DNA of 57,011 bases from Escherichia phage vB_EcoM_fHy-Eco03: the sequence record MW602648.1; one strand, 5' to 3'. This document shows, piece after piece, positions 1 to 57,011 of the stretch; position 1 is the stretch's first letter; every line of letters starts with the position of its first letter. A program made the position numbers and the translations under genes. A model generated the notes under the pieces. The model was not told where the DNA came from. It did not search any database and was given only the letters and a program-made list of their open reading frames with translations.

Positions 1-45
1 GGCGCAAAAAGAAAAAAAGCCGGATTGCTTTTGAAATTATAGACA

Positions 46-74
46 TTTACACAAGTCTTAAACTATGTTACAAT
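46..74 (+). promoter_or_regulatory. Sigma70-like promoter (TTTACA-N17-TGtTACAAT) in terminal repeat
   Basis: TTTACA at 46..51, 17-bp spacer, TACAAT at 69..74 preceded by TG at 66..67; about 40 bp upstream of the ATG at 114. Duplicate at 53358..53386. Confidence 0.5.
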
Positions 75-113
75 AGTTATTATTTACAATGTTAAGCACA
101 ATAGGAATTCATC

Positions 114-311
114 ATGAGCTATACTGACCAACAAATTGACACAGCAGCGGTTTTATTGGCACAAGAGGTAGATTTATTGCATTCTTTGATGAATGCTAGT
201 CATGATAGAGCTGAAACTATCAAGAATCAGATACGGGAAATTTGGTCTCAGCAGGTCAGCAACGGTGTATCTTTGGACTTTTTGGTGTGCCGCCTGAGAG
301 GTCAACTGTAA
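114..311 (+). CDS. Hypothetical protein (65 aa)
   Basis: ATG ORF with AGGAA 6 nt upstream; stop overlaps the next start (TAATG). Confidence 0.5.
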   Translation: MSYTDQQIDTAAVLLAQEVDLLHSLMNASHDRAETIKNQIREIWSQQVSNGVSLDFLVCRLRGQL

Positions 312-736
312 TGGTAAACATAAGAAGCAAGGGCCAGAACTTTGAGCGTAAAATGTCGAAAATGTTCAATGAATCGTTCGGGTTATCTACTGAGAGAAAT
401 CTCCAGCAATCTATAAACGGTGGAGATGATTTGATGGGAGTCCCGTTCTTCAGCGTTGAGCTCAAGAAGCACAACACCAAAGCTATCGGGACTTGGTGGA
501 AGCAATGTGCGGAATCAGCACGGCGTCAAAGCAAGATGCCAGTGCTAATCTATGAGATGCCACGGCAAAAGCCCACTGTCGTGATGAGAATTGAGGACGT
601 CAGTCAAGCTTTGGCTGAGGCACCACTGTTGCCAGCGGCTAGTAACAGGCTCTTTGTGGGCTTGGTGGAATTAACATGGGAACAATTTTGCCGGGTCTAC
701 AACTTTTACGTTGCGCCCGGCGTCGAGGTTGCTTAG
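311..736 (+). CDS. Putative PD-(D/E)xK-family nuclease (141 aa)
   Basis: ATG at 311 overlaps the upstream stop. Motif GGDDLMGVPFFSVELKK (D...ELK) resembles the PD-(D/E)xK nuclease signature. Track ORF 242..736 is the same frame with an upstream start. Confidence 0.4.
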   Translation: MVNIRSKGQNFERKMSKMFNESFGLSTERNLQQSINGGDDLMGVPFFSVELKKHNTKAIGTWWKQCAESARRQSKMPVLIYEMPRQKPTVVMRIEDVSQALAEAPLLPAASNRLFVGLVELTWEQFCRVYNFYVAPGVEVA

Positions 737-774
737 GTTGATGCTTGCATCAACACCAGTCAACTGTAGTTGAC
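737..774. terminator. Two adjacent hairpins between convergent genes
   Basis: GTTGATG-cttg-CATCAAC (737..754) and GTCAAC-tgta-GTTGAC (759..774), between the + gene ending at 736 and the - gene ending at 777; no clear U-run. Confidence 0.3.
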
Positions 775-776
775 AC

Positions 777-962
777 TTAGTCTTGTTTCAACTCATCGCA
801 GATAACGCGTTGATTTTGAGCTGGTACAAACCCGAGTTCGAGCAAAGTGTAAGGACTATCGGCGACGCATTGTTCAATGGTAGTCCATTCAGTTTTGGAT
901 TCAATAATTTTGTAACTACAATCATGAGTAGCCACACATGTTGCCAGGATTAAGCCAATCAC
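777..962 (-). CDS. Hypothetical protein (61 aa, GTG start)
   Basis: GTG start overlaps the upstream stop (GTGA); GAAGGAG Shine-Dalgarno upstream. Confidence 0.45.
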   Translation of the reverse strand: MIGLILATCVATHDCSYKIIESKTEWTTIEQCVADSPYTLLELGFVPAQNQRVICDELKQD

Positions 963-1138
963 AAGTAATCTCCTTCAACCAGAAACTCAAACAATTGGTT
1001 GTAAACGTTGCAACCCTTAGCGAAAGAGCTTTCAGCAGGTTTACCATCGCGGACGATCATCATATATTCACCGCCATGAATATCCACCCAGTATTGCATG
1101 CCACCCTTGACAGGGTTACGTTGTAAGAATTTAAACAT
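959..1138 (-). CDS. Hypothetical protein (59 aa), absent from the ORF track
   Basis: Hand-translated: MFKFLQRNPVKGG...VEGDYL. AAGGAG 7 nt upstream of the ATG; start overlaps the upstream stop (TAATG) and stop overlaps the downstream GTG. Confidence 0.5.
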   Translation of the reverse strand: MFKFLQRNPVKGGMQYWVDIHGGEYMMIVRDGKPAESSFAKGCNVYNQLFEFLVEGDYL

Positions 1139-1383
1139 TATTTGCTCCTTACTCCAAGTTTATTCAATAACCACACTGTCATGTCAACCCAGGTTAACGG
1201 TACAGTTTTCGGGGGTTGATAAGACCAGCACTTTCCAGCTCTTTCCGCAATTTCTTCGCGCCTTGCCGCTTGGCGTAATACTGCATCGTCAGAAGTGCCG
1301 GCAGAAAAAATATCGGCAATACCAGATAAATCGCCTCGATGAACACGTCCAGCAAGTTCATGCAGTTGCTCCTCAGAAAACAT
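1138..1383 (-). CDS. Hypothetical protein (81 aa)
   Basis: ATG start overlaps the stop of the upstream small ORF (ATGTTTTCTGA); part of the coupled leftward array. Confidence 0.5.
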   Translation of the reverse strand: MFSEEQLHELAGRVHRGDLSGIADIFSAGTSDDAVLRQAARREEIAERAGKCWSYQPPKTVPLTWVDMTVWLLNKLGVRSK

Positions 1384-1492
1384 AAGACAACACCATTAGA
1401 ATGATGATAAAGACAGCAACGGCTTTCGCCATGCCACGAGATTCATTATACACCGGATTTTCAGTGGTGTACTCAACAACATGCTTTTTCAT
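1373..1492 (-). CDS. Small hydrophobic protein (39 aa), absent from the ORF track
   Basis: Hand-translated: MKKHVVEYTTENPVYNESRGMAKAVAVFIIILMVLSYVF. GGAGG Shine-Dalgarno upstream; hydrophobic C-terminal half suggests a membrane segment. Confidence 0.45.
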   Translation of the reverse strand: MKKHVVEYTTENPVYNESRGMAKAVAVFIIILMVLSYVF

Positions 1493-1549
1493 ACAACCTC
1501 CAGTGTGAGAAATATCAATTGATGGCACCCGCAGATGCCATCTCAGATA

Positions 1550-2122
1550 TTACTCGCCTTCAGTCTCAGATTTTTCTTCAGTCTGAGGTGCTGCGGCTTC
1601 GTAGACCGTCTTACCATCAGTGATTTTACCGGATTTAACATCGTTACGGTAATAACTCATGTAAGACTGTACAACACGTTTTGATTTAACATCATCTTCA
1701 GCCATTTCACAGGCTTTCATGGCATCCGCAAGAGCGAGTTTTGAATCGTCTTTGTCTGCCAAGTTGTAATCTTTGAAGACCGCGTAACAAGTATCTTTGG
1801 TACTCGGTCCTGAAGATTTACGAGTACAACCAGTTGAACCGGAACGACTAGCTTTCTTCACTTCAACATGCTCAACCTCAAGACTTTCAAGTGCCTTATA
1901 CAAAGCAGGCACCAGAACATCCTTGCTGTCTTTGTGGGTGACAGATGCTTCATCATCAAGACTTTTAATCATCTTGACCAGTTGAGCATTTTGGAACTCT
2001 TTGAGAGCGCCTTTCTCAACAACGATGCAACTCATCATGCCTTCCATTGACAGACCATCTTTGATGCCTTCAACAGAAAAAGCGGAAGTTAAGTAAACAT
2101 ACTGAGTGATAGAATTTTCCAT
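1550..2122 (-). CDS. Hypothetical early protein (190 aa)
   Basis: Long ORF with AAGAGGA Shine-Dalgarno upstream; largest ORF in the terminal repeat. Confidence 0.6.
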   Translation of the reverse strand: MENSITQYVYLTSAFSVEGIKDGLSMEGMMSCIVVEKGALKEFQNAQLVKMIKSLDDEASVTHKDSKDVLVPALYKALESLEVEHVEVKKASRSGSTGCTRKSSGPSTKDTCYAVFKDYNLADKDDSKLALADAMKACEMAEDDVKSKRVVQSYMSYYRNDVKSGKITDGKTVYEAAAPQTEEKSETEGE

Positions 2123-2252
2123 GATTTTGTCCTCTTGTTTGTGGTTGACATCATTATAATGTCATGACTTCAGTTGTTTGTACATCTCAAATCACACATT
2201 TTTGTGCAATTTTTATCATGCGGTACGAATTATACCGCATTGTAAAAATTAC

Positions 2253-2453
2253 TCAAGAAATAATTACCTCAGTAACTACTACAGTGTTAGCAGTCACTAA
2301 TGTCAAAACTTTACCAGCTTTTGACCTCACAGCTTTCAACCGTAATTGTGACTGTGTGTAATTATTCCACTCTTCATCACTGAGCACGGTCCTGGTAACT
2401 TCAGGTCGTTCATCTTTGCCAAGCTTCACTACTGTAACTTTGATTAATGGCAT
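2253..2453 (-). CDS. Hypothetical protein (66 aa)
   Basis: ORF packed 4 nt after the upstream gene. Confidence 0.45.
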   Translation of the reverse strand: MPLIKVTVVKLGKDERPEVTRTVLSDEEWNNYTQSQLRLKAVRSKAGKVLTLVTANTVVVTEVIIS

Positions 2454-2456
2454 TGC

Positions 2457-2684
2457 TTAAACCTCAAATTTTGATTCGTCATATTCAGGGTCAGTCACAT
2501 CACGAGTGACACAATTTTGGAGTGCAGTCCAGTATTTTTGGACTTCAGCACCCTCCATGTATAGTGTCCAACCGTGATAGTAACCCTCGAAACTATTCCA
2601 GGTCCGTTCCCAAATCTTTCCGTCTTCGAGCTTATACTCAGTTGGTCTTGAGTCAAACTCACGGATAGTTGTGAATGTTACCAT
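2457..2684 (-). CDS. Hypothetical protein (75 aa)
   Basis: ORF in the coupled leftward array. Confidence 0.45.
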   Translation of the reverse strand: MVTFTTIREFDSRPTEYKLEDGKIWERTWNSFEGYYHGWTLYMEGAEVQKYWTALQNCVTRDVTDPEYDESKFEV

Positions 2685-2753
2685 GCGTTGTTACGCCTCT
2701 GTTGAATAATTTCAATCATGAACTATCACAACTTTGATAGTTCATTGTTGAAA

Positions 2754-2933
2754 CTATTGTAACTTTGTACTAATTTGAATTGTCAATCTAAACTCTTCAA
2801 GTAAGTTATCAATGTTGGATTTATCTTCCACAGCGGTAGAAATTTGATCACTTACAATTTGAGCATTTGACTCAAGAAGTTCAATCAAATGTGTCAATTC
2901 GTCTGCTGTCAATGTCAATTCTTTCATCATCAT
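2754..2933 (-). CDS. Hypothetical acidic protein (59 aa), absent from the ORF track
   Basis: Hand-translated: MMMKELTLTADELTHLIELLESNAQIV... Start overlaps the stop of the upstream ORF (ATGATGA). Confidence 0.4.
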   Translation of the reverse strand: MMMKELTLTADELTHLIELLESNAQIVSDQISTAVEDKSNIDNLLEEFRLTIQISTKLQ

Positions 2934-3100
2934 TCTCCTGAGTTAAATTGTGTGTCAATTTCAATAACTTTGGAACGTACATATTCCAGACAGTCATCAT
3001 AATCGTATGAAGTGTAACTCGGCATTGGAGAATCCAACCCTTCGTTAACATTCCATTCACCTTCATTAACATCAAACCAGATGATTAATTGAGTATGCAT
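2930..3100 (-). CDS. Hypothetical protein (56 aa), absent from the ORF track
   Basis: Hand-translated: MHTQLIIWFDVNEGEWNVNEGLDSPMPSYTSYDYDDCLEYVRSKVIEIDTQFNSGE. AGGAGT Shine-Dalgarno 8 nt upstream of the ATG. Confidence 0.45.
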   Translation of the reverse strand: MHTQLIIWFDVNEGEWNVNEGLDSPMPSYTSYDYDDCLEYVRSKVIEIDTQFNSGE

Positions 3101-3270
3101 TGTTATTACTCCTGTGTTAAGTTGTTTCAGGTGAGACTACTAAACTACTAATAGTCTCTGGATGAAATAACTTCACAGAGAAACAAAACATGTACCAAAT
3201 TGTTAAAGAGCAAAAGACACCATTGACCATCTACCAGATGTGTCTGTTGACTGGTTAAGTACTAACTACA

Positions 3271-3462
3271 CTAAGTAACTACATGCATCCTCCTGAACCG
3301 TTTCTGTGTCAAGTTGTTCAACACATTCAATAAATACATTATGTCAAAGTCCCTGTTGGTTGTACACAATAGAAGTGCAAGTTTGTGCAAGCTTTTAGAA
3401 ATGATAATCATCTGCGGTTGATAGTGATTCTCGTATGCAATTGATATAGTAACGCTCGTCAC
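3271..3462 (-). CDS. Hypothetical protein (GTG start, uncertain)
   Basis: Track ORF; its 5' end overlaps repeat element A, so the start is uncertain. Confidence 0.3.
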   Translation of the reverse strand: MTSVTISIAYENHYQPQMIIISKSLHKLALLLCTTNRDFDIMYLLNVLNNLTQKRFRRMHVVT

Positions 3463-3545
3463 TACTCAGTGTGAAACAGTCGACGGGGGTAAACGTCACA
3501 CACCGGTGCTATATTAGTTCCCCGGCGCAATTTTTATAAAAAATA
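3440..3545. repeat. Imperfect direct repeat element A (about 100 bp)
   Basis: TTGATATAGTAACGCTCGTCACTACTCAGTGTGAAACAGTCGACGGGGGTAAACGTCACACACCGGTGCTATATTAGTTCCCCGGCGCAATTTTTAT aligns with element B 173 bp downstream. Confidence 0.6.
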
Positions 3546-3612
3546 CAATTTCGTTTGTAATCGTAGACATACGGTATAGTTGCGGCCCGGTACCGTCACG
3601 GTGAGTTGTGAT

Positions 3613-3720
3613 TACGATTGTAATGATAACGCACGTTACTATTCACTCTGAAGGGGTGCCGGGGGGTAATTGTCACCTAGGGGTGTTAATTTAAGCCCCG
3701 GCAAATTTTTTATTTTTTTC
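3613..3720. repeat. Imperfect direct repeat element B, spanning the terminal-repeat boundary
   Basis: TTGTAATGATAACGCACGTTACTATTCACTCTGAAGGGGTGCCGGGGGGTAATTGTCACCTAGGGGTGTTAATTTAAGCCCCGGCAAATTTTTTAT; the repeat boundary (3699/3700) falls inside it at CCCC|GGC. Confidence 0.6.
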
Positions 3721-4697: not shown

Positions 4698-5368
4698 TGA
4701 TTAATATCATGTTTGCTATGGGCAAAAACGGAGAATTCGGCCGTTCGCTGGAACTCCATAAATCGATTGTTGCCCAGTCTACTGACGAAGAGCTTCGCGC
4801 GCTTCCTAAAAATGGTCTCCCTTGGGTTTGTCGACCTGACATGCTCTTTTTCAGGACTATGACTAATGGTATTGCTTCCGATACAGGCTATAACGCATTT
4901 GAGCAGCTCCGCGGTCAATTTCCCAGCCAGCAGGTAAGCTCGGTAATCAATAACGCAGCCGGAGAGACATCCCAACACAACGTAATATTGGCAGGACGCA
5001 AAACCTGGTTGCAGATGAGCTTACCGCCTTCTCGCTATCGCACCTTTTTGCCCGTCAGCAGACAAGTATTCAAGGATAACGCTTTCTTGACGCTTGCTGA
5101 TATGTGCAAACACTGTGAAGACGCCGGAAATGACGTCTGGATTGTGGGTGGCAAGGAATTGATTATGTCAGCGCTGGTCGAGCACTCGCTGGGTGACCTC
5201 CGTGTTGACAACATGTTCATCAGTACAATAGCCAATGCGGGTCCGAGTGACATCCTACTGGACCGAGAAAAAATAATGGCGTACATAGATAGTGACTTCG
5301 CGTATAATGATGAATATGCTGAAAACAACGAAGTACTCATCCAACGATTTAGAGGCAAACACAAATGA
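4694..5368 (+). CDS. Dihydrofolate reductase-like protein
   Basis: DHFR-like motifs recalled from E. coli FolA and T4 Frd: LPW...FF..T, ILAGRKTW...LP..R, VWIVGGKELI. Carries insertions; not aligned. Confidence 0.5.
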   Translation: MMINIMFAMGKNGEFGRSLELHKSIVAQSTDEELRALPKNGLPWVCRPDMLFFRTMTNGIASDTGYNAFEQLRGQFPSQQVSSVINNAAGETSQHNVILAGRKTWLQMSLPPSRYRTFLPVSRQVFKDNAFLTLADMCKHCEDAGNDVWIVGGKELIMSALVEHSLGDLRVDNMFISTIANAGPSDILLDREKIMAYIDSDFAYNDEYAENNEVLIQRFRGKHK

Positions 5369-5871: not shown

Positions 5872-6590
5872 CTAATAAAGTAGTTGTGCAAAAGGTTGTA
5901 GGTGAGATTTCTATCCGTTGTGAAGCCTCATCCGACCGCCGCGATGTTAGCATGCAAGACTTGCTGAATATCGCAAATATGGGTACAGGTAACGAAGATA
6001 CAGTGACAGGGCGTGAAGGCGTCAACGTATCTATTACTATGTCTGGACCTGATGCACCTGCTGAACCGCTGTTCACACCAGTAGAAGAGCCTCGTCCACG
6101 TGGTATCAGCTATGGTGCAATCAAAAAAGCTGATGACTTACGACGTGAGCAGGAAATTGAAAAGCTTGCGGTAGAGCGTCGTACAGAAGCAGTAAACATT
6201 TTCCGTCGTCGTTTATACGATGCAATGCACGGTTACGAGATGAATCCTGACGGCTTCAGAGCTGCATTGGAAAATGTTATCTGTTCTGCAGCTGACACTT
6301 ATCGTAGCATGCTTACGTCTGCCGATAAAGACAGAGCTGAACGCGACTTGATGAAAACAAACCTCGGTAAACTGAATACTGAGAACATGGAGTTGCAGCG
6401 GCAGGTAGATGATGCTGTTCGTGCTATGCAAAAACAGGCTGAAGACTTCAACAGACAAGCTGATGTTCATGCACAAACTGTTGATAACATCCTTGCAACG
6501 CGTGTCGCAACAGAAAAAGAGCTTGAAGAAGCTAACCGTAAAATCAAGCGCATGAAAGATTATGCCGTACGTTTGAATAGTATTTGCTAA
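5868..6590 (+). CDS. Hypothetical protein (240 aa)
   Basis: ORF; C-terminal half looks coiled-coil. Confidence 0.45.
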   Translation: MTNKVVVQKVVGEISIRCEASSDRRDVSMQDLLNIANMGTGNEDTVTGREGVNVSITMSGPDAPAEPLFTPVEEPRPRGISYGAIKKADDLRREQEIEKLAVERRTEAVNIFRRRLYDAMHGYEMNPDGFRAALENVICSAADTYRSMLTSADKDRAERDLMKTNLGKLNTENMELQRQVDDAVRAMQKQAEDFNRQADVHAQTVDNILATRVATEKELEEANRKIKRMKDYAVRLNSIC

Positions 6591-6880
6591 TGGACTTATT
6601 CGACTTAGTTGATAACCCACAAGTAGGACAGTCGGCTGAGAAGAAGCCCTTTAACTGGGAAGAGTTCAAAGCTGGCAAACCTGCTATATCTCGCTCAGGT
6701 GAGATAGCTTACTTTGGTGGTGAATACACACATCCCTTGGCAAGTAAGGACCGTTTTATAGCTATCATGACTGTTCCGGACCATGCTATAGTCAAATATG
6801 GTAAAGAAACAATGCCGTACGTGATTGATAATCGTGGTTACTTTGAAGGAATGGCTCCTTTGCTGGTAGAAATGGCATAA
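6584..6880 (+). CDS. Hypothetical protein (98 aa)
   Basis: ORF. Confidence 0.4.
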   Translation: MLMDLFDLVDNPQVGQSAEKKPFNWEEFKAGKPAISRSGEIAYFGGEYTHPLASKDRFIAIMTVPDHAIVKYGKETMPYVIDNRGYFEGMAPLLVEMA

Positions 6881-7016
6881 AACCGGATAAAAATAAGAGT
6901 GTCTAATCACTTCTTCTATATAAGGCGAGTACTTATAAGGATTTAGGCTGTAGACACTCTATCTCACCCTTTTAGACACTCCCATCTTTCACTTCTGCCT
7001 TATTCCTTATATAGCA

Positions 7017-7045
7017 TTTACATTTCCTCAAGTCCTCGTTATAAT
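7017..7045 (+). promoter_or_regulatory. Sigma70-like promoter (TTTACA-N17-TATAAT) upstream of the packaging/head operon
   Basis: TTTACA 7017..7022, 17-bp spacer, TATAAT 7040..7045; ATG of the first structural gene at 7076. Confidence 0.5.
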
Positions 7046-7075
7046 CCGGCATACCGGACCAGCGAGGATTTTTTC

Positions 7076-7399
7076 ATGGCACGAAAACCACAAAAGACAC
7101 GCGATGCCACAGCAGAACTGCTGGCTAGCATGAATCGTATTCAGCTCGACCCGCTTGAAGTTATTGCACGTGCCATCAAACTGGCTGAAGCTGACAGTGA
7201 TTATAAGACTATGATTGACGGTTCACTCGGCATTATGCCGTATATGTACCCTAAATTAAAAGAGTCTGTTGTTAAAGCTGATATTGACCAGACCATTTCT
7301 GGCGGCGGTGTTAACCTTAACATTACAGTCGGCGGTAAGAAAATAGTCGGCGAAGAACCAGAAGAAGAACCTGAGGACGAGGATAATAATGAATCTTGA
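7076..7399 (+). CDS. Putative terminase small subunit
   Basis: 107-aa ORF immediately upstream of, and overlapping, the large terminase; acidic C-terminus. Called by position only. Confidence 0.4.
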   Translation: MARKPQKTRDATAELLASMNRIQLDPLEVIARAIKLAEADSDYKTMIDGSLGIMPYMYPKLKESVVKADIDQTISGGGVNLNITVGGKKIVGEEPEEEPEDEDNNES

Positions 7400-8840
7400 T
7401 TTTGACCTGCACGACAGGCAAGGTGAAGCCCTGCTGTCCCAGGCCACCGAGATTCTTTATGGTGGTGCAGCAGGCGGGGGCAAATCCCACTTGATGCGCA
7501 TTATGGCTATCATTCTTTGCTGTATGATACCTCGTTTACAGATTTACTTGTTTCGCCGTAACTTTAATGACCTGACAGCTAACCATATGGTTGGTCCGTC
7601 AGGTTTTCCTGCATTGCTTGACCATATGGTTAAAGCTGGTAAATGCAAGATTAACTACTCCAGTAACGTGATTAAGTTCTGGAATGGTTCGCACATTAAC
7701 TTGTGTCACCTACAATACGAGAAAGATATATACACCTACCAGGGTGCTGAGATTCACGTTCTGTTAATGGATGAGCTTACTCACTTTACAGAAACGATGT
7801 ATCGATTCCTCCGTAACCGTGTTCGTTTAGGTGCGCTAAAGATTCCAAAGGACTTCTTCCGGCCGCTACCACTCATCTTTTGTGGGTCAAACCCCGGTGG
7901 TATCGGGCACAACTGGGTTAAGCGTACTTTCGTAACAGCTGCACCTCCTATGCACATGGTTAAACAACCTAAGCGTGAAGGTGGTATGATTCGCCAGTAC
8001 ATTCCGGCAAAAATGTCTGATAACCCAACCCTGATGGAAAACGACCCGGACTACGGTGACCGACTCGAAGGTCTGGGTGACCCGGCACTGGTTGCTGCAA
8101 TGAAAGAAGGCGACTGGGATATTGTTGCTGGTGGTGCGCTGGATGACGTGTGGAGTAACAAGTCAGTTATACCACGAATGAAAGTTCCTAAAGGCTGGAC
8201 AATTGAACGTTCAATGGACTGGGGCTCAACGCATCCATTCTCTATTGGTTGGTGGGCCATTTCAAATGGTGCTCCTCTGGTAGATGAGAAGACTGGCGAA
8301 GAGTATCACCTTCCAAACGGCTCATTAATCCGTATAGCTGAATGGTACGGGTGCAAGGAAAACGAAGCTAACACCGGTTTGAAATTGTCTGCAGGTGAAG
8401 TAGCTGACGGTATTCTTGAGATTGAAGAAAACTTGCTACTTGGCGGTTGGATTCATGACAAGCCTTGGCCTGGCCCGGCAGACGGACAGATTTATGCCGT
8501 TAAAGAGCGTGACGTAGAGACCATCGCTAAAAAGATGGAAGACAAAGGTGTGCACTGGGTGCGTGCCGACAAGTCACAGGGCTCAAGAATAAATGGCCTG
8601 GAGCTATTCCGTCAGCGACTGAAAAATGTTAAGATGGATAACTATGAAGAACCAGGCATTTACTTTATGGAAAACTGTACAGCTGCCATAAACACATTGC
8701 CAGTTATTCCGCGTGATAAAAACAACAGCGAAGACGTTGACACACATTCTGAAGACCACGTATATGACGATTGTAGGTACATGGTTCTGCGAGGTGTGAA
8801 TCGTTACGCTACATCATTGAACGTTAAGATGGGACGGTAA
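7389..8840 (+). CDS. Terminase large subunit
   Basis: Walker A YGGAAGGGKSH and Walker B VLLMDELTHF; 483 aa; followed by the portal gene. Confidence 0.85.
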   Translation: MNLDFDLHDRQGEALLSQATEILYGGAAGGGKSHLMRIMAIILCCMIPRLQIYLFRRNFNDLTANHMVGPSGFPALLDHMVKAGKCKINYSSNVIKFWNGSHINLCHLQYEKDIYTYQGAEIHVLLMDELTHFTETMYRFLRNRVRLGALKIPKDFFRPLPLIFCGSNPGGIGHNWVKRTFVTAAPPMHMVKQPKREGGMIRQYIPAKMSDNPTLMENDPDYGDRLEGLGDPALVAAMKEGDWDIVAGGALDDVWSNKSVIPRMKVPKGWTIERSMDWGSTHPFSIGWWAISNGAPLVDEKTGEEYHLPNGSLIRIAEWYGCKENEANTGLKLSAGEVADGILEIEENLLLGGWIHDKPWPGPADGQIYAVKERDVETIAKKMEDKGVHWVRADKSQGSRINGLELFRQRLKNVKMDNYEEPGIYFMENCTAAINTLPVIPRDKNNSEDVDTHSEDHVYDDCRYMVLRGVNRYATSLNVKMGR

Positions 8841-10393: not shown

Positions 10394-10422
10394 TTTACAT
10401 TCTGTTCCACTGGTTATATAAT
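10394..10422 (+). promoter_or_regulatory. Sigma70-like promoter (TTTACA-N17-TATAAT) upstream of scaffold and capsid genes
   Basis: TTTACA 10394..10399, 17-bp spacer, TATAAT 10417..10422; followed by a long GC-rich inverted repeat at 10435..10498. Confidence 0.45.
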
Positions 10423-10565
10423 CTGGAACGTTGACCGCGCAAAAGGCCGGCCACTCGAGTCTGCAGGGCTCAGTGGATTACAGGGGCCGGCTGCGCGGTT
10501 GACGCCAACCCTGTTTAGAGCCCAGTTGAGCGGATTGAGCCCCTCTCATATAGGATTGAAAAATT

Positions 10566-12325: not shown

Positions 12326-12694
12326 ATGGGTGGCGCAAGAATCAAACCAGAACCTTCACACATTCGCGGAATATGTATTACAGAAGGTTGTATTAACCCT
12401 CAAGTACGCAGGGATAAAAATAATTATAGAGCACATTGTGCTTCTTGCCACAACAAACGTCATAACATAGGTCCATCGCGATTTAAATATAGAAAGTTTA
12501 AAAAAGATGTTTGTGAAGAATGCGGATTTGTACCAGTACATCCATGTCAGTTAGATGTTGACCACGTAGATGGTAACCATAAAAACGATGACCCTTCTAA
12601 TTTGCGTACTCTTTGCGCTAACTGCCATAGACTCAAAACATACCTTAACAGGGACTGTGTCTCTAACTCTTCAGGTTTACTTGTACAAAATTAG
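12326..12694 (+). CDS. HNH endonuclease
   Basis: Cys-rich N-terminus (CASCHNKRH) and HNH core DVDHVDGNHKNDDPSNLRTLCANCH; free-standing gene inside the structural operon. Confidence 0.7.
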   Translation: MGGARIKPEPSHIRGICITEGCINPQVRRDKNNYRAHCASCHNKRHNIGPSRFKYRKFKKDVCEECGFVPVHPCQLDVDHVDGNHKNDDPSNLRTLCANCHRLKTYLNRDCVSNSSGLLVQN

Positions 12695-18137: not shown

Positions 18138-18166
18138 TTTACTTAACCAAAAGTGCCTGCTATAAT
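18138..18166 (+). promoter_or_regulatory. Candidate promoter with extended -10 (TTTACT-N17-TGcTATAAT), overlapping a hairpin
   Basis: TATAAT 18161..18166 lies in the loop of a perfect 8-bp hairpin GTGCCTGC / GCAGGCAC (18153..18177). Confidence 0.35.
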
Positions 18167-18198
18167 ACTGCAGGCACGCAACCATGTTGGAGATAATC

Positions 18199-20787: not shown

Positions 20788-20849
20788 AAATTAATTAACT
20801 AATTACTGGCCATTTACTTGTTTAAGTTTACCGGGTATAATGGCCAGGA

Positions 20850-22007
20850 ATGTCCACAAGAGGATGGCCCGAAATGACGTTAAGTGTAAATAATGTTGTT
20901 AACGTCCAGCTCAATAACATCGCGACTGGCATCCGGAAAGGCGACTTCGGTAAGCTGGCATTTCTGACTCAGGATGCTGGTACCGCTTTCCCGGACACCT
21001 CAACGCCGAAGTATGTTGAGATTGGTACTATTGACGACGTGAAAGATTTATGGGGTACTGGTTCTGTAGTTTACCAGGCTGCTCAGGTATTCTTTGCACA
21101 GTCGCCTAAACCGAAGTCGTTTGTTGTTGGCTTTTGGGATAGCGAAGGTACTCTTACCGATGCTATTGCCAACCTGAACGACATTTATCCGAACTGGTAT
21201 GTTATGCGCCCGCTGCCGCCTACTGGTGTACTGACAGAAGCTCAAATCATTGAGCTGTCCACAGCCGTAGCGGCGTATGACAAAAAACGTTGTTCCTATA
21301 CAACGTCTGTTGCCACGCATATCGAAGCAGGTGATACTAACCCGCTGAAAGATTTGGCCGGTAAAGCTTTCAACAACATGTGGCTACAGTACGATAAGCA
21401 GAACCAGAGGTATGCTGACGTGTCCGCAATGGCGCGTGCTCTGTCTGTAAACTTCTCTGGTAACCGTACTACGATTACTATGAAGTTCAAACAAGAGCCA
21501 GGTATCTCGCCTAACGATAACTTGACGCTGACTGAAGCGAACAAGTGTAAGGCGCTTGGTATTAACTATTACACATATTACAGCACTTTTGCAATGATTG
21601 CGGAAGGTACTGTATTCGGTACTGACCAGCGTTTCTGGGATGAAATTCACGGGCTCGACTGGTTCTGTAATGCCGTGCAGACTTATGTCTTCAATGCGTT
21701 GGCGCAGTCTCCGACTAAAGTTCCTCAGACCAACAAAGGTAATGAGAAGCTGGTTGGTGCAGCAGCTGTTGCGTGTCAAGAAGCTGTCGATAACGGTTTT
21801 ATCGCGCCAGGCGTTTGGTACGGCGACGAGTTCGGTGAGCTTGCTTATGGCGACCGTCTGGAAACTGGTTTCTACATCTACATGCCGGATGTTGATACTC
21901 AGGACCAGGTAGACCGCGAAGCGCGTAAAGCAACTGTTATGCAGATTGCTATCAAACTGGCCGGCGCTATTCACTCTGCCGATATTATTATCAACTTTAC
22001 TCGCTAA
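20850..22007 (+). CDS. Putative tail sheath protein
   Basis: 385-aa ORF directly upstream of the tube, chaperone and tape-measure genes. Confidence 0.5.
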   Translation: MSTRGWPEMTLSVNNVVNVQLNNIATGIRKGDFGKLAFLTQDAGTAFPDTSTPKYVEIGTIDDVKDLWGTGSVVYQAAQVFFAQSPKPKSFVVGFWDSEGTLTDAIANLNDIYPNWYVMRPLPPTGVLTEAQIIELSTAVAAYDKKRCSYTTSVATHIEAGDTNPLKDLAGKAFNNMWLQYDKQNQRYADVSAMARALSVNFSGNRTTITMKFKQEPGISPNDNLTLTEANKCKALGINYYTYYSTFAMIAEGTVFGTDQRFWDEIHGLDWFCNAVQTYVFNALAQSPTKVPQTNKGNEKLVGAAAVACQEAVDNGFIAPGVWYGDEFGELAYGDRLETGFYIYMPDVDTQDQVDREARKATVMQIAIKLAGAIHSADIIINFTR

Positions 22008-33688: not shown

Positions 33689-33964
33689 TCATTTGCATTC
33701 TTCCTCGCAGTAAATAGTTTCAAGTTCATCGCACAGCCTTTGAGTCCAGGTGTCTTCTTCACCTCGTATCTCAAAACAAAGGGCTGCTATATCATAGCCG
33801 TCAATATTACTTTTGTAAAGCTTTTTTGCGACCTCTTCCGGTTCTTCGCTGAAAATCCGCATAAACCAGTCTAAAGGGCAGGTGCATTCTGAGGTGTCTA
33901 GAACCTCCTGAGCACGTAGCTTAAGCGTTTCATCTACTGGGTACTCTAAACCTATATTAGACAC
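33689..33964 (-). CDS. Hypothetical protein (91 aa)
   Basis: ORF. Confidence 0.4.
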   Translation of the reverse strand: MSNIGLEYPVDETLKLRAQEVLDTSECTCPLDWFMRIFSEEPEEVAKKLYKSNIDGYDIAALCFEIRGEEDTWTQRLCDELETIYCEEECK

Positions 33965-33985
33965 TTAATAGACTCCTTAATTATT

Positions 33986-39487: not shown

Positions 39488-39964
39488 TTATTCTGCGTAG
39501 GTGTTTTCACCGTCAGTATCGGTAGAACCAGCGGCCAACTTAGCAGCTTCAGCTTTAGCAGCTTCTGCTTTCTGGCGAGCTTTTTCAGCACGCTCTTCAG
39601 CTTTTTTGATTTGCTCAGCAGCTTTCTGCTCAGCTTTTTCAGCTTTGATGCGTGCACGCTCTTCAGCTTTACGCTGTTTTTCAGCAGCTTTAGCAGCATC
39701 GCGTTCTGCTTTAGCTGTATCAACGCGCTTAGCCAGAACCTTACCAGTGGCTTTACGCCAGTAGGTCAGCTGAGAAGAAACGGTACCGCGCGACATTTCG
39801 GTCTCTTTGGTTACGACGTCCATCACATCGGAGCTTGACTTACCAGCTTCGTGAGCTTTGTCAGCCATGTCCCAAACGTAACGTGCACCAGTACCAGCTG
39901 CCGGGTACAGAACACCGTTTACTTCTTCTTTACCAGTTGCAAAAGTCAGTTTAGATTCGCTCAT
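39488..39964 (-). CDS. Lys/Ala/Glu-rich low-complexity protein (158 aa)
   Basis: C-terminal half is a charged A/K/E repeat (AKAERDAAKAAEKQRKAEERARIKAEKAEQKAAEQIKKAEERAEKARQKAEAAKAEAAK). Confidence 0.5.
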   Translation of the reverse strand: MSESKLTFATGKEEVNGVLYPAAGTGARYVWDMADKAHEAGKSSSDVMDVVTKETEMSRGTVSSQLTYWRKATGKVLAKRVDTAKAERDAAKAAEKQRKAEERARIKAEKAEQKAAEQIKKAEERAEKARQKAEAAKAEAAKLAAGSTDTDGENTYAE

Positions 39965-53203: not shown

Positions 53204-53357
53204 TATATAAAAGATAGAGAGTATTTAAAACAAGTACTTAGGCATCCTTATTCATGTAATCCGGTTATATGTATTATATAATTATCAGATTGGATAAGAA
53301 AAAGTTATTGCCGGCGCAAAAAGAAAAAAAGCCGGATTGCTTTTGAAATTATAGACA

Positions 53358-53386
53358 TTTACACAAGTCTTAAACTATGTTACAAT
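53358..53386 (+). promoter_or_regulatory. Copy of the terminal-repeat promoter (TTTACA-N17-TGtTACAAT)
   Basis: Duplicate of 46..74. Confidence 0.5.
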
Positions 53387-53425
53387 AGTTATTATTTACA
53401 ATGTTAAGCACAATAGGAATTCATC

Positions 53426-53623
53426 ATGAGCTATACTGACCAACAAATTGACACAGCAGCGGTTTTATTGGCACAAGAGGTAGATTTATTGCATTCTTTG
53501 ATGAATGCTAGTCATGATAGAGCTGAAACTATCAAGAATCAGATACGGGAAATTTGGTCTCAGCAGGTCAGCAACGGTGTATCTTTGGACTTTTTGGTGT
53601 GCCGCCTGAGAGGTCAACTGTAA
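53426..53623 (+). CDS. Hypothetical protein (duplicate of 114..311)
   Basis: Identical copy in the right terminal repeat. Confidence 0.5.
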   Translation: MSYTDQQIDTAAVLLAQEVDLLHSLMNASHDRAETIKNQIREIWSQQVSNGVSLDFLVCRLRGQL

Positions 53624-54048
53624 TGGTAAACATAAGAAGCAAGGGCCAGAACTTTGAGCGTAAAATGTCGAAAATGTTCAATGAATCGTTCGGGTTATCT
53701 ACTGAGAGAAATCTCCAGCAATCTATAAACGGTGGAGATGATTTGATGGGAGTCCCGTTCTTCAGCGTTGAGCTCAAGAAGCACAACACCAAAGCTATCG
53801 GGACTTGGTGGAAGCAATGTGCGGAATCAGCACGGCGTCAAAGCAAGATGCCAGTGCTAATCTATGAGATGCCACGGCAAAAGCCCACTGTCGTGATGAG
53901 AATTGAGGACGTCAGTCAAGCTTTGGCTGAGGCACCACTGTTGCCAGCGGCTAGTAACAGGCTCTTTGTGGGCTTGGTGGAATTAACATGGGAACAATTT
54001 TGCCGGGTCTACAACTTTTACGTTGCGCCCGGCGTCGAGGTTGCTTAG
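53623..54048 (+). CDS. Putative PD-(D/E)xK-family nuclease (duplicate of 311..736)
   Basis: Identical copy in the right terminal repeat. Confidence 0.4.
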   Translation: MVNIRSKGQNFERKMSKMFNESFGLSTERNLQQSINGGDDLMGVPFFSVELKKHNTKAIGTWWKQCAESARRQSKMPVLIYEMPRQKPTVVMRIEDVSQALAEAPLLPAASNRLFVGLVELTWEQFCRVYNFYVAPGVEVA

Positions 54049-54088
54049 GTTGATGCTTGCATCAACACCAGTCAACTGTAGTTGACAC

Positions 54089-54274
54089 TTAGTCTTGTTT
54101 CAACTCATCGCAGATAACGCGTTGATTTTGAGCTGGTACAAACCCGAGTTCGAGCAAAGTGTAAGGACTATCGGCGACGCATTGTTCAATGGTAGTCCAT
54201 TCAGTTTTGGATTCAATAATTTTGTAACTACAATCATGAGTAGCCACACATGTTGCCAGGATTAAGCCAATCAC
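54089..54274 (-). CDS. Hypothetical protein (duplicate of 777..962)
   Basis: Identical copy in the right terminal repeat. Confidence 0.45.
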   Translation of the reverse strand: MIGLILATCVATHDCSYKIIESKTEWTTIEQCVADSPYTLLELGFVPAQNQRVICDELKQD

Positions 54275-54450
54275 AAGTAATCTCCTTCAACCAGAAACTC
54301 AAACAATTGGTTGTAAACGTTGCAACCCTTAGCGAAAGAGCTTTCAGCAGGTTTACCATCGCGGACGATCATCATATATTCACCGCCATGAATATCCACC
54401 CAGTATTGCATGCCACCCTTGACAGGGTTACGTTGTAAGAATTTAAACAT
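54271..54450 (-). CDS. Hypothetical protein (duplicate of 959..1138)
   Basis: Identical copy in the right terminal repeat. Confidence 0.5.
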   Translation of the reverse strand: MFKFLQRNPVKGGMQYWVDIHGGEYMMIVRDGKPAESSFAKGCNVYNQLFEFLVEGDYL

Positions 54451-54695
54451 TATTTGCTCCTTACTCCAAGTTTATTCAATAACCACACTGTCATGTCAAC
54501 CCAGGTTAACGGTACAGTTTTCGGGGGTTGATAAGACCAGCACTTTCCAGCTCTTTCCGCAATTTCTTCGCGCCTTGCCGCTTGGCGTAATACTGCATCG
54601 TCAGAAGTGCCGGCAGAAAAAATATCGGCAATACCAGATAAATCGCCTCGATGAACACGTCCAGCAAGTTCATGCAGTTGCTCCTCAGAAAACAT
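54450..54695 (-). CDS. Hypothetical protein (duplicate of 1138..1383)
   Basis: Identical copy in the right terminal repeat. Confidence 0.5.
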   Translation of the reverse strand: MFSEEQLHELAGRVHRGDLSGIADIFSAGTSDDAVLRQAARREEIAERAGKCWSYQPPKTVPLTWVDMTVWLLNKLGVRSK

Positions 54696-54804
54696 AAGAC
54701 AACACCATTAGAATGATGATAAAGACAGCAACGGCTTTCGCCATGCCACGAGATTCATTATACACCGGATTTTCAGTGGTGTACTCAACAACATGCTTTT
54801 TCAT
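54685..54804 (-). CDS. Small hydrophobic protein (duplicate of 1373..1492)
   Basis: Identical copy in the right terminal repeat. Confidence 0.45.
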   Translation of the reverse strand: MKKHVVEYTTENPVYNESRGMAKAVAVFIIILMVLSYVF

Positions 54805-54861
54805 ACAACCTCCAGTGTGAGAAATATCAATTGATGGCACCCGCAGATGCCATCTCAGATA

Positions 54862-55434
54862 TTACTCGCCTTCAGTCTCAGATTTTTCTTCAGTCTGAGG
54901 TGCTGCGGCTTCGTAGACCGTCTTACCATCAGTGATTTTACCGGATTTAACATCGTTACGGTAATAACTCATGTAAGACTGTACAACACGTTTTGATTTA
55001 ACATCATCTTCAGCCATTTCACAGGCTTTCATGGCATCCGCAAGAGCGAGTTTTGAATCGTCTTTGTCTGCCAAGTTGTAATCTTTGAAGACCGCGTAAC
55101 AAGTATCTTTGGTACTCGGTCCTGAAGATTTACGAGTACAACCAGTTGAACCGGAACGACTAGCTTTCTTCACTTCAACATGCTCAACCTCAAGACTTTC
55201 AAGTGCCTTATACAAAGCAGGCACCAGAACATCCTTGCTGTCTTTGTGGGTGACAGATGCTTCATCATCAAGACTTTTAATCATCTTGACCAGTTGAGCA
55301 TTTTGGAACTCTTTGAGAGCGCCTTTCTCAACAACGATGCAACTCATCATGCCTTCCATTGACAGACCATCTTTGATGCCTTCAACAGAAAAAGCGGAAG
55401 TTAAGTAAACATACTGAGTGATAGAATTTTCCAT
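54862..55434 (-). CDS. Hypothetical early protein (duplicate of 1550..2122)
   Basis: Identical copy in the right terminal repeat. Confidence 0.6.
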   Translation of the reverse strand: MENSITQYVYLTSAFSVEGIKDGLSMEGMMSCIVVEKGALKEFQNAQLVKMIKSLDDEASVTHKDSKDVLVPALYKALESLEVEHVEVKKASRSGSTGCTRKSSGPSTKDTCYAVFKDYNLADKDDSKLALADAMKACEMAEDDVKSKRVVQSYMSYYRNDVKSGKITDGKTVYEAAAPQTEEKSETEGE

Positions 55435-55564
55435 GATTTTGTCCTCTTGTTTGTGGTTGACATCATTATAATGTCATGACTTCAGTTGTTTGTACATCTC
55501 AAATCACACATTTTTGTGCAATTTTTATCATGCGGTACGAATTATACCGCATTGTAAAAATTAC

Positions 55565-55765
55565 TCAAGAAATAATTACCTCAGTAACTACTACAGTGTT
55601 AGCAGTCACTAATGTCAAAACTTTACCAGCTTTTGACCTCACAGCTTTCAACCGTAATTGTGACTGTGTGTAATTATTCCACTCTTCATCACTGAGCACG
55701 GTCCTGGTAACTTCAGGTCGTTCATCTTTGCCAAGCTTCACTACTGTAACTTTGATTAATGGCAT
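55565..55765 (-). CDS. Hypothetical protein (duplicate of 2253..2453)
   Basis: Identical copy in the right terminal repeat. Confidence 0.45.
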   Translation of the reverse strand: MPLIKVTVVKLGKDERPEVTRTVLSDEEWNNYTQSQLRLKAVRSKAGKVLTLVTANTVVVTEVIIS

Positions 55766-55768
55766 TGC

Positions 55769-55996
55769 TTAAACCTCAAATTTTGATTCGTCATATTCAG
55801 GGTCAGTCACATCACGAGTGACACAATTTTGGAGTGCAGTCCAGTATTTTTGGACTTCAGCACCCTCCATGTATAGTGTCCAACCGTGATAGTAACCCTC
55901 GAAACTATTCCAGGTCCGTTCCCAAATCTTTCCGTCTTCGAGCTTATACTCAGTTGGTCTTGAGTCAAACTCACGGATAGTTGTGAATGTTACCAT
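55769..55996 (-). CDS. Hypothetical protein (duplicate of 2457..2684)
   Basis: Identical copy in the right terminal repeat. Confidence 0.45.
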   Translation of the reverse strand: MVTFTTIREFDSRPTEYKLEDGKIWERTWNSFEGYYHGWTLYMEGAEVQKYWTALQNCVTRDVTDPEYDESKFEV

Positions 55997-56065
55997 GCGT
56001 TGTTACGCCTCTGTTGAATAATTTCAATCATGAACTATCACAACTTTGATAGTTCATTGTTGAAA

Positions 56066-56245
56066 CTATTGTAACTTTGTACTAATTTGAATTGTCAATC
56101 TAAACTCTTCAAGTAAGTTATCAATGTTGGATTTATCTTCCACAGCGGTAGAAATTTGATCACTTACAATTTGAGCATTTGACTCAAGAAGTTCAATCAA
56201 ATGTGTCAATTCGTCTGCTGTCAATGTCAATTCTTTCATCATCAT
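56066..56245 (-). CDS. Hypothetical protein (duplicate of 2754..2933)
   Basis: Identical copy in the right terminal repeat. Confidence 0.4.
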   Translation of the reverse strand: MMMKELTLTADELTHLIELLESNAQIVSDQISTAVEDKSNIDNLLEEFRLTIQISTKLQ

Positions 56246-56412
56246 TCTCCTGAGTTAAATTGTGTGTCAATTTCAATAACTTTGGAACGTACATATTCCA
56301 GACAGTCATCATAATCGTATGAAGTGTAACTCGGCATTGGAGAATCCAACCCTTCGTTAACATTCCATTCACCTTCATTAACATCAAACCAGATGATTAA
56401 TTGAGTATGCAT
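56242..56412 (-). CDS. Hypothetical protein (duplicate of 2930..3100)
   Basis: Identical copy in the right terminal repeat. Confidence 0.45.
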   Translation of the reverse strand: MHTQLIIWFDVNEGEWNVNEGLDSPMPSYTSYDYDDCLEYVRSKVIEIDTQFNSGE

Positions 56413-56582
56413 TGTTATTACTCCTGTGTTAAGTTGTTTCAGGTGAGACTACTAAACTACTAATAGTCTCTGGATGAAATAACTTCACAGAGAAACAAAA
56501 CATGTACCAAATTGTTAAAGAGCAAAAGACACCATTGACCATCTACCAGATGTGTCTGTTGACTGGTTAAGTACTAACTACA

Positions 56583-56774
56583 CTAAGTAACTACATGCAT
56601 CCTCCTGAACCGTTTCTGTGTCAAGTTGTTCAACACATTCAATAAATACATTATGTCAAAGTCCCTGTTGGTTGTACACAATAGAAGTGCAAGTTTGTGC
56701 AAGCTTTTAGAAATGATAATCATCTGCGGTTGATAGTGATTCTCGTATGCAATTGATATAGTAACGCTCGTCAC
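56583..56774 (-). CDS. Hypothetical protein (duplicate of 3271..3462)
   Basis: Identical copy in the right terminal repeat. Confidence 0.3.
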   Translation of the reverse strand: MTSVTISIAYENHYQPQMIIISKSLHKLALLLCTTNRDFDIMYLLNVLNNLTQKRFRRMHVVT

Positions 56775-57011
56775 TACTCAGTGTGAAACAGTCGACGGGG
56801 GTAAACGTCACACACCGGTGCTATATTAGTTCCCCGGCGCAATTTTTATAAAAAATACAATTTCGTTTGTAATCGTAGACATACGGTATAGTTGCGGCCC
56901 GGTACCGTCACGGTGAGTTGTGATTACGATTGTAATGATAACGCACGTTACTATTCACTCTGAAGGGGTGCCGGGGGGTAATTGTCACCTAGGGGTGTTA
57001 ATTTAAGCCCC

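Follow-up and report, generated by a model that had tools for sequence, protein, structure and literature searches.

In bacteriophage T4, the late promoters of genes e, soc, 49 and I-TevI lie within a hairpin by which the ribosome-binding site (RBS) is masked on the longer, early transcripts (PMC3014915), while the Rho-dependent transcript ends of Escherichia coli, as described by Dar and Sorek (2018), carry a stable stem-loop that lacks a U-tract, with the Rho-utilisation (rut) site located immediately downstream (PMC6061677); the main criteria of RhoTermPredict are a C/G ratio above 1 in 78 nucleotides (nt) and a hairpin within the 150 nt that follow (PMC6407284). Here, we present the analysis of a 195-nt non-coding gap, positions 6881-7075 of a 57,011-nt stretch of DNA from Escherichia phage vB_EcoM_fHy-Eco03 (MW602648.1), to which we refer as "the window"; the gap lies between a nucleotide-metabolism operon upstream and the terS, terL and portal genes downstream, and it has features of both of these arrangements. 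We have found that the gap is best read as a compound operon boundary of a familiar kind rather than as a set of repressor sites; our preferred explanation, which we hold at a probability of roughly 55%, is a composite module of the "stop here, start again" type, whose action would be mainly at the level of the plus-strand RNA.

The window consists of one phage genome of 53,312 nt and an exact terminal redundancy of 3,699 nt (positions 1-3699 are identical to 53313-57011). The phage is Rosemountvirus-like: over terL it has 95% identity to the Salmonella phages KE25 and KE26 (Rosemountvirus), and its further kin are the Loughboroughvirus phages (S144, ZCSE2, SE4), Erwinia phage SOI901 and BP63-like phages, e.g. 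swi3. The homologous gap has been taken from 16 sequences of about nine lineages (GenBank phages, IMG/VR, metagenome contigs and Logan assemblies) and aligned; the comparison is confined to these lineages of one clade, because the farther TerL relatives (L015-L019, with a TerL identity of 61% or less) have unrelated upstream regions. The gene order around the gap is identical in all relatives, and the invariant blocks of the alignment are GGAT.AA...G.GTCTA, TACTTA, the proximal TAGAC, TTTAC.T, TCGTTATAATCC, CCGGA and CGAGGA. A previous, sequence-only reading had described the region as a regulatory boundary between two transcription units, and this description stands: an operon on the same strand ends upstream, and terS-terL-portal begins downstream. 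All of the sequence elements that it named have been found, with overall coordinate errors of 1-5 nt. The elements of the gap are the following:

6879-6905, plus strand: conserved block after the stop codon, AAAACCGGATAAA...G.GTCTA, with GGAT.AA and G.GTCTA invariant in 16/16 sequences; it ends in GAGTGTCTA (site 1, 6897-6905).
6896-6960, plus strand: predicted hairpin H1 (65 nt), with a basal stem of 10 base pairs (bp), 6896-6905/6951-6960, which pairs site 1 with site 2 (TAGACACTC, 6951-6959).
6954-7031, plus strand: C-rich, G-poor, pyrimidine-rich tract of 78 nt, a candidate rut site by its composition.
6973-6981, plus strand: third copy of the repeated 9-mer (site 3, the proximal TAGAC box), with the TAGAC core invariant in all relatives.
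6984-7003, exact borders ambiguous, plus strand: insertion of about 20 nt, seen as gap columns 112-130 of the alignment and present only in the lineage of the window, KE25, KM and L088.
7017-7045, plus strand: sigma-70-type promoter P_terS, with the -35 hexamer TTTACA at 7017-7022, a 17-nt spacer and the -10 hexamer TATAAT at 7040-7045.
7030-7074, including the U-tract, plus strand: predicted hairpin H2, with an outer stem of 11 bp (7030-7040/7061-7071), an inner stem (7045-7049/7054-7058) and the loop CATA.

The promoter that had been proposed at 7017-7045 is present: it agrees with the consensus at 11 of 12 positions and ties for the best one in the first 20 kb. Both TTTAC[AT] and TCGTTATAATCC are invariant in 16/16 sequences, with a 17-bp spacer throughout; the homologous site in S144 has independently been annotated as a predicted promoter, and the TTTAC[AT]-17-TATAAT consensus also precedes several other late genes. 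The start site is predicted at about 7051-7053, from the usual 7-nt distance to the -10 hexamer; a search of the literature has found no transcriptome of this phage group. The -10 hexamer is overlapped by the hairpin that had been described as TCCTCG...CGAGGA followed by T6, which we have likewise recovered: TCCTCG (7033-7038) pairs with CGAGGA (7063-7068), T6 follows at 7069-7074, and in the inner stem TCCGG (7045-7049) pairs with CCGGA (7054-7058), with H2 enclosing both the -10 hexamer and the predicted start site. The comparison with the relatives shows that the promoter and the overlapping hairpin are kept in all 16 sequences, with the expected start in the apical loop in every lineage; the -10 hexamer is in the internal loop of H2. 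The predicted folding free energy of H2 is -21 kcal/mol in the window and ranges from -14 to -26 kcal/mol across all lineages; its core pairs are never broken, while five pairs vary by wobble only, including an inner CCGG/CTGG variant in L088.

The 3' arm of H2 also holds the Shine-Dalgarno (SD) sequence GAGGA (7064-7068) of the ATG at 7076, which the sequence-only reading had overlooked. In folding predictions for read-through RNA, the probability that the SD sequence is unpaired is 0.00 in the window and does not exceed 0.23 in any of the eight lineages folded; in an RNA that begins at the predicted start site, it is 0.4-0.6. The U-tract after H2 occurs only in the window, KM, L088, L008, L087, L014, L086, SOI901 and the L091 group; in S144, SE4, swi3, SE13, yarpen, LSE7621 and Sz, H2 is kept and the U-tract is replaced by CAATATCC or CGATACCC. 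H2 has not been called by a simple terminator scan, and a scan of positions 6500-7400 against Rfam, with E-values up to 1, has returned no known RNA family.

Hairpin H1 begins 15 nt past the stop codon of the upstream operon and is not followed by a U-tract. Above its basal stem, an apical stem is formed between TATAAG (6919-6924) and CTTATA (6932-6937); its minimum free energy (MFE) is -23.9 kcal/mol, with a z-score of -4.2 against mononucleotide shuffles and of -1.6 against dinucleotide shuffles. Between L088 and the window there are 23 differences in 208 nt, and only two of these are located inside H1, at positions 6898 and 6958, which are the partners of one base pair: the A-U pair of the window is a G-C pair in L088 (6898 A to G, 6958 T to C), while the 54 columns directly 3' of H1 differ at 18 positions (33%). 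As a result of these two changes, GAGTG/CACTC of sites 1 and 2 becomes GGGTG/CACCC, while the third copy reads TAGACACTT. In S144, SE4, swi3, SOI901, L014 and L086, the 5' element pairs instead with CGCCUU located 40 nt downstream (AAGGCG:CGCCUU), and the comparison of SE4 with S144 reveals a further compensatory change, from GGCG:CGCC to GGUG:CACC (C-G to U-A). The paired changes in L088 and SE4 are the signature of a hairpin stem and not of a protein site; the variants of H1 also contain many G.U pairs, which point to the RNA of the plus strand, because they would be C.A mismatches on the opposite strand. Site 1 can additionally pair with site 3 in all sequences, at 7/8 bp, and site 3 is the MFE partner of site 1 in KM, L008 and L087; an alternative RNA helix between the two sites is thus possible, given that the pairing is available in every sequence.

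The tract at 6954-7031 has 33.3% C and 3.8% G, i.e. a C/G ratio of 8.7, and ranks first for C over G among the 53,235 segments of 78 nt in the genome, none of which is richer in pyrimidines. This composition is kept in all 16 sequences (C 25-35%, G 8-15%), despite their fast divergence, and the tract, together with the hairpin downstream, shows the main features on which RhoTermPredict relies (PMC6407284).

What the analysis itself shows, and what our model starts from, are the sequence elements, the degree to which they are conserved, their compensatory and wobble changes, the extreme base composition of the tract and the difference in predicted SD accessibility. Transcripts of the upstream operon would pass the stop codon (6878-6880) and fold H1 from the inverted and the first direct 9-mer; the C-rich tract would be the rut site, loading host Rho on the untranslated RNA, and H1 would be the stem-loop that blocks 3'-exonucleases and fixes the mature 3' end. 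P_terS would then restart transcription for terS-terL-portal and beyond. On read-through RNA, H2 would bury the SD sequence of terS and, in this sublineage, with U6, it would also resemble an intrinsic terminator, while RNA from P_terS would start in the loop of H2 and would have its RBS open, because it lacks the 5' arm of H2. The net effect would be that the terminase is made only from transcripts of its own promoter. We infer in this model that the structures act as RNA, that the upstream end depends on Rho, where exactly transcription starts, how early and late expression would be timed and what part the third TAGAC box would take.

Compared with T4 gene e, the locus is similar in that the SD sequence of terS forms one arm of a stable hairpin, the -10 hexamer is located within the hairpin, the predicted start is in the loop, giving a transcript that lacks the 5' arm, and translation is predicted to occur only from the gene's own promoter; it differs in that the promoter is of the host sigma-70 consensus type, instead of the T4 gp55 late promoter (TATAAATA), in that H2 also carries a U-tract in part of the family, and in that the gene encodes a terminase subunit of an unrelated 53-kb myovirus. 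The likeness to the Rho-dependent ends of E. coli lies in the order of the elements after the stop codon: H1 without a U-run, an unstructured tract with an extreme excess of C over G, and a hairpin as a candidate pause site; unlike those ends, this putative one closes a phage operon, contains a promoter within the 3' portion of the tract and has a weak H1 in two lineages. H2 can also be compared with an intrinsic terminator, as a GC-rich stem of -21 kcal/mol that is followed by U6, but the stem has an internal loop that holds the -10 hexamer, and the U-tract is lost in S144, SE4 and the BP63-like relatives while H2 stays; termination at H2 is probably an added role in the window's half of the family.

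Several points weigh against the model. Where transcription starts, whether it reads through and whether its end depends on Rho have only been predicted, and a promoter as close to the consensus as P_terS offers no obvious means to delay late expression. H1 is only modestly unusual when the dinucleotide composition is preserved, and L008 and L087 have no convincing H1 (z of about -0.2 to -0.5). In the 16-sequence alignment, the covariation counts for both types of H1, for the pairing of site 1 with site 3 and for H2 do not exceed the column-shuffle controls, because most of the paired columns never vary, and the structural case thus stands on few compensatory events. Regularly spaced C residues (one every 11-13 nt) form a chain of five in the tract, and not of six. 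Intrinsic termination is not the conserved role of H2, since the U-tract is missing in S144, SE4 and the BP63-like phages, and the masking of the SD sequence may be a local extra at terS, since the hairpins at the other late promoters, which are described below, exclude the SD sequence. Finally, the model leaves unaccounted for the invariant GTCTA and TAGAC cores, their 71-72-nt spacing and the steps of 24, 34 or 44 nt between the proximal core and the -35 hexamer.

Hairpin-forming repeats are also found at other late promoters of the window. At the promoter at 18138-18185, an 8-bp inverted repeat (GTGCCTGC/GCAGGCAC in the window) flanks the -10 hexamer and has undergone compensatory changes, to GCGCCAGC/GCTGGCGC in S144 and swi3 and to AGCCAG/CTGGCT in SOI901; at the promoter at 20813 (20800-20850), all of the promoter lies between 7-bp arms, CTGGCCA/TGGCCAG, of which S144 and swi3 carry G.U variants. 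The GTTCCA/TGGAAC repeat at the late promoter at 10394-10435 is not conserved in SOI901 or S144. In the relatives, a classical terminator abuts the next promoter in the gap after the major capsid gene. Judging from these sequences, this phage family routinely places promoters and the structures of RNA 3' ends close together. As a separate observation on these promoters, the open reading frame (ORF) that ends just upstream of the promoter at 12676 (at about 12560-12640) encodes an HNH-endonuclease-like motif (H-V-D-G-N-H-K-N-D-D-P-S-N-L-R-T-L-C-A-N-C-H), in place of which S144, swi3 and SOI901 have a classical terminator hairpin that abuts the promoter; in the window, a homing endonuclease gene may have been inserted there.

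The repeats of the gap, from which the sequence-only reading had started, have been located again. The 9-mer, described as occurring twice directly and once inverted, is indeed present in this arrangement: TAGACACTC is found at 6951-6959 and at 6973-6981 on the plus strand, and its complement GAGTGTCTA at 6897-6905; two of the sites are placed as previously given, while the third copy starts one position earlier than the 6974-6982 that had been assigned to it. The three copies are the only exact copies in the 57 kb, and copies with one mismatch occur elsewhere at chance level (8 found, 12.2 expected). A genome-wide search with TAGACACTC and with the TAGAC core has found neither enrichment nor an association with other promoters, nor is there a second occurrence of the TAGAC-N15-18-TAGAC arrangement in the genome; over the whole genome, TAGAC/GTCTA is less than half as frequent as the base composition predicts (49 found, about 112 expected), and a cluster at 33869-33969 is located in a coding region. 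A 9-mer that occurs three times, on either strand, within 100 nt arose in 5 of 300 simulated first-order Markov genomes; the triple 9-mer is thus unlikely by chance, though not overwhelming by itself, and we judge it to be solid because it is conserved in the relatives. The genome has a second locus with a 9-mer three times within 100 nt, at 39540-39690 (AAAGCTGAA / GCTGAAAAA, with AGCTTT/TTCAGC repeats on the minus strand), which is probably a repetitive coding stretch for a coiled coil (Ala/Lys/Glu-rich).

The second inverted pair of the gap is present as well, but its 13-mer, CTTCTATATAAGG, is located at 6913-6925 and not at 6911-6923; its perfect part is a 10-nt pair, CTATATAAGG (6916-6925) and CCTTATATAG (7005-7014). 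As a conserved element this pair does not hold, being lineage-specific: the CCTTATATAG arm adjoins the insertion of about 20 nt and is found only in the window and KE25; it is already lost in phage KM (93.5% identical), which carries CCTTGTCTGC in its place, while L088 carries ACTCATCCGC. Two additional promoters have been considered in the gap and ruled out by eye: one after the stop codon, with TATAAA of the conserved block, which has no -35 hexamer, and an antisense one, with TAGACA as the -35 hexamer, which has no usable -10 hexamer.

The genes that border the gap are listed here, as their products bear on the alternatives that follow:

6590-6880 (stop codon 6878-6880), plus strand: last gene of the upstream operon, 96 amino acids, no assigned function (ORF list).
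7076-7399, plus strand: terS-like gene, 107 amino acids (ORF list), which overlaps the start of terL and matches phrog_38712.
7389-8840, plus strand: terL, with a match to Pfam Terminase_6N.

The upstream operon is tightly packed on the plus strand, ends at 6880 and comprises Ku/Gam-like, dihydrofolate reductase and thymidylate kinase genes and two genes of no assigned function. The 96-residue protein has annotated orthologues in KE25, S144, SOI901 and swi3 and matches phrog_29999 (function unknown), with no match in Pfam; its AlphaFold model is β-rich, at a predicted local distance difference test (pLDDT) score of 62, a low confidence that is too low for a fold search. The homologue of terS in S144 has been annotated, on position, as a putative small terminase, and the terS product has no significant match among solved structures. 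In one further record, L081 (Salmonella phage SPHG1, MW413353.1; 47 kb), the proximal TAGACA box is directly joined to the start codon of terL at 1590-1615, with the promoter, H2 and the entire terS gene missing, either through a real deletion or through an assembly fault.

The explanation that the sequence-only reading had favoured, i.e. repeated operator-like sites for a phage regulator, can be stated as TAGAC boxes that serve as DNA sites for a phage-encoded or host DNA-binding protein, which bends or loops the roughly 70 bp upstream of P_terS and modulates this promoter at the transition from early to late transcription; we regard it as rather unlikely. It would account for what our model does not: the GTCTA core of site 1 and the proximal TAGAC core are invariant in 16/16 sequences inside a fast-diverging stretch, they are 71-72 bp apart in every lineage despite nearby insertions and deletions, the distance from the proximal box to the -35 hexamer changes in steps of about one helical turn (24/25, 34 or 44 bp by lineage, with the box of the window starting 44 bp upstream), the two direct boxes are 21-22 bp apart, and the 5-bp cores themselves have seen no compensatory change, which one would not usually expect of a plain RNA stem. 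The phasing, however, stands on about two insertion or deletion events, and its chance is estimated at roughly 0.1; four lineages have a degenerate middle box (TAGCC, TATAC, TATGC), and the extended identity of the 9-mers follows the pairing and not a common site consensus, given that sites 1 and 2 change in L088 as pairing partners and site 3 changes separately, so the three copies do not behave as equivalent operator sites. The motif recurs neither at another promoter nor anywhere in the rest of the genome. The boxes, at -79 and farther upstream, stay clear of the core promoter; in this position, and with a promoter that is already near the consensus, they fit neither a classical repressor nor a needed activator. 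No DNA-binding protein has been assigned: the neighbouring proteins match no DNA-binding family, and the 96-residue protein has no DNA-binding signature, in a low-confidence model and with the other proteins of the phage not screened; a search by eye has found no convincing IHF, LexA, DnaA, MetJ or CRP site in the region. As short repeated boxes at the border of an operon, which keep their spacing and appear to be in helical phase with the promoter, they do recall the p4 sites of phi29 (A2b/A2c/A3) and the lambda operators, from which they differ in their position off the core promoter, in having only two universal 5-bp cores, in extended repeats that covary as a stem, in the absence of reuse in the genome and in having no known cognate protein. 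The same invariant cores could be explained in another way, which we consider unlikely, and somewhat less likely than the preceding one: either GUCUA, with three mutually exclusive partners (CGCCUU or site 2, both of which give H1, and the proximal UAGAC), would be an RNA switch that gates the access of Rho and sets the read-through from upstream into the terminase and late genes, or the GTCTA...TAGAC pair, phased by 10 bp to the -35 hexamer, would be bound by a phage protein that loops the DNA and times an otherwise constitutive promoter.

As a further alternative, the repeats next to terS could be binding sites of TerS, similar to lambda cosB (R3-I1-R2-R1) or to a pac site; the array lies directly upstream of the terS-like gene, and its layout of one inverted and two direct repeats with a spacer presumably resembles that of cosB upstream of Nu1. 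The genome ends are, however, 3.2 kb away from the repeats, at the redundancy border at 3699, and no IHF-like site has been seen by eye, while the compensatory changes favour a stem. That border falls in the same gap, between gene clusters E and A, where restriction mapping has placed the physical ends of the related phage S144 and has excluded cohesive ends (PMC7432712); on the end mapping of S144 and the position of the redundancy, we have rejected a cos or pac site as very improbable. We give as little credit to a replication origin, in which the direct repeats and the inverted copy would be iterons beside a promoter that primes or activates replication: a direct-repeat period of 21-22 bp, such as the one found here, is typical of iterons, the region is moderately AT-rich (61%, as compared with 54.7% for the genome), and the minimum of the cumulative GC skew, at 5053, is within 2 kb; but there are only two direct copies, one of them degenerate in four lineages, the annotation of S144 contains no recognisable initiator gene, the skew trough is wide, extending from about 50 kb to 5 kb, and has its centre elsewhere than in the gap, and the strand-specific excess of C over G and the compensatory changes fit RNA better. 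A structure at the level of the DNA is quite improbable, though less so than these two: the inverted repeats at the -10 hexamers of late promoters would extrude as cruciforms or hairpins that expose or hide the hexamer and make the promoters sensitive to supercoiling or replication. Three late promoters (7017, 18138 and 20813) do have, on either side of an AT-rich TATAAT centre, GC-rich arms that are kept by compensatory changes, and at two of the three the hairpin misses the SD sequence, so that translational masking is not the general reason for these repeats; against this, in several variants the pairing persists only in the form of G.U, a mismatch at the DNA level, the loops, of 9 to about 29 nt, are long, the DNA in the virion is a linear molecule with repeats at its ends, and we know of no precedent for sigma-70 promoters that work by such extrusion.

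Additional observations concern the terminal redundancy. Its borders share a similar motif, ...TTGCC|GGCGCAAAAA on the left (position 1) and ...AGCCCC|GGCAAATTTT on the right (3699/3700), with a third similar copy, CCCCGGCGCAATTTTT, near 3522, and the right border falls in the gap where the ends of S144 were mapped; the redundancy may be a true long direct terminal repeat that carries small minus-strand genes, as in T5. For its start, positions 1-400 of the window, the phage collection contains almost no match at the nucleotide level, although terL is 95% identical to that of KE25; the early small-gene region is hypervariable. Inside the redundancy, three copies of AATTGACA fall within a span of about 70 nt (2891-2960), and this cluster may represent TTGACA -35 boxes of early promoters.

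With respect to the composite model, Rosemountvirus and Loughboroughvirus phages are under development against Salmonella and E. coli; they carry no phage RNA polymerase, and near-consensus host promoters precede their late genes. None of the mechanisms proposed here is new in kind, and the value of the analysis lies in annotation and in guiding experiments. If true, the scheme for the first late operon, i.e. a Rho-type end with a protective hairpin, a restart at an embedded promoter and the masking of the terminase RBS on read-through RNA, would explain how the phage avoids making terminase from early transcripts with no regulator devoted to this task. The placement of a promoter within a hairpin recurs at several late promoters, where compensatory changes have preserved it, and this suggests that the family follows a general rule of layout.

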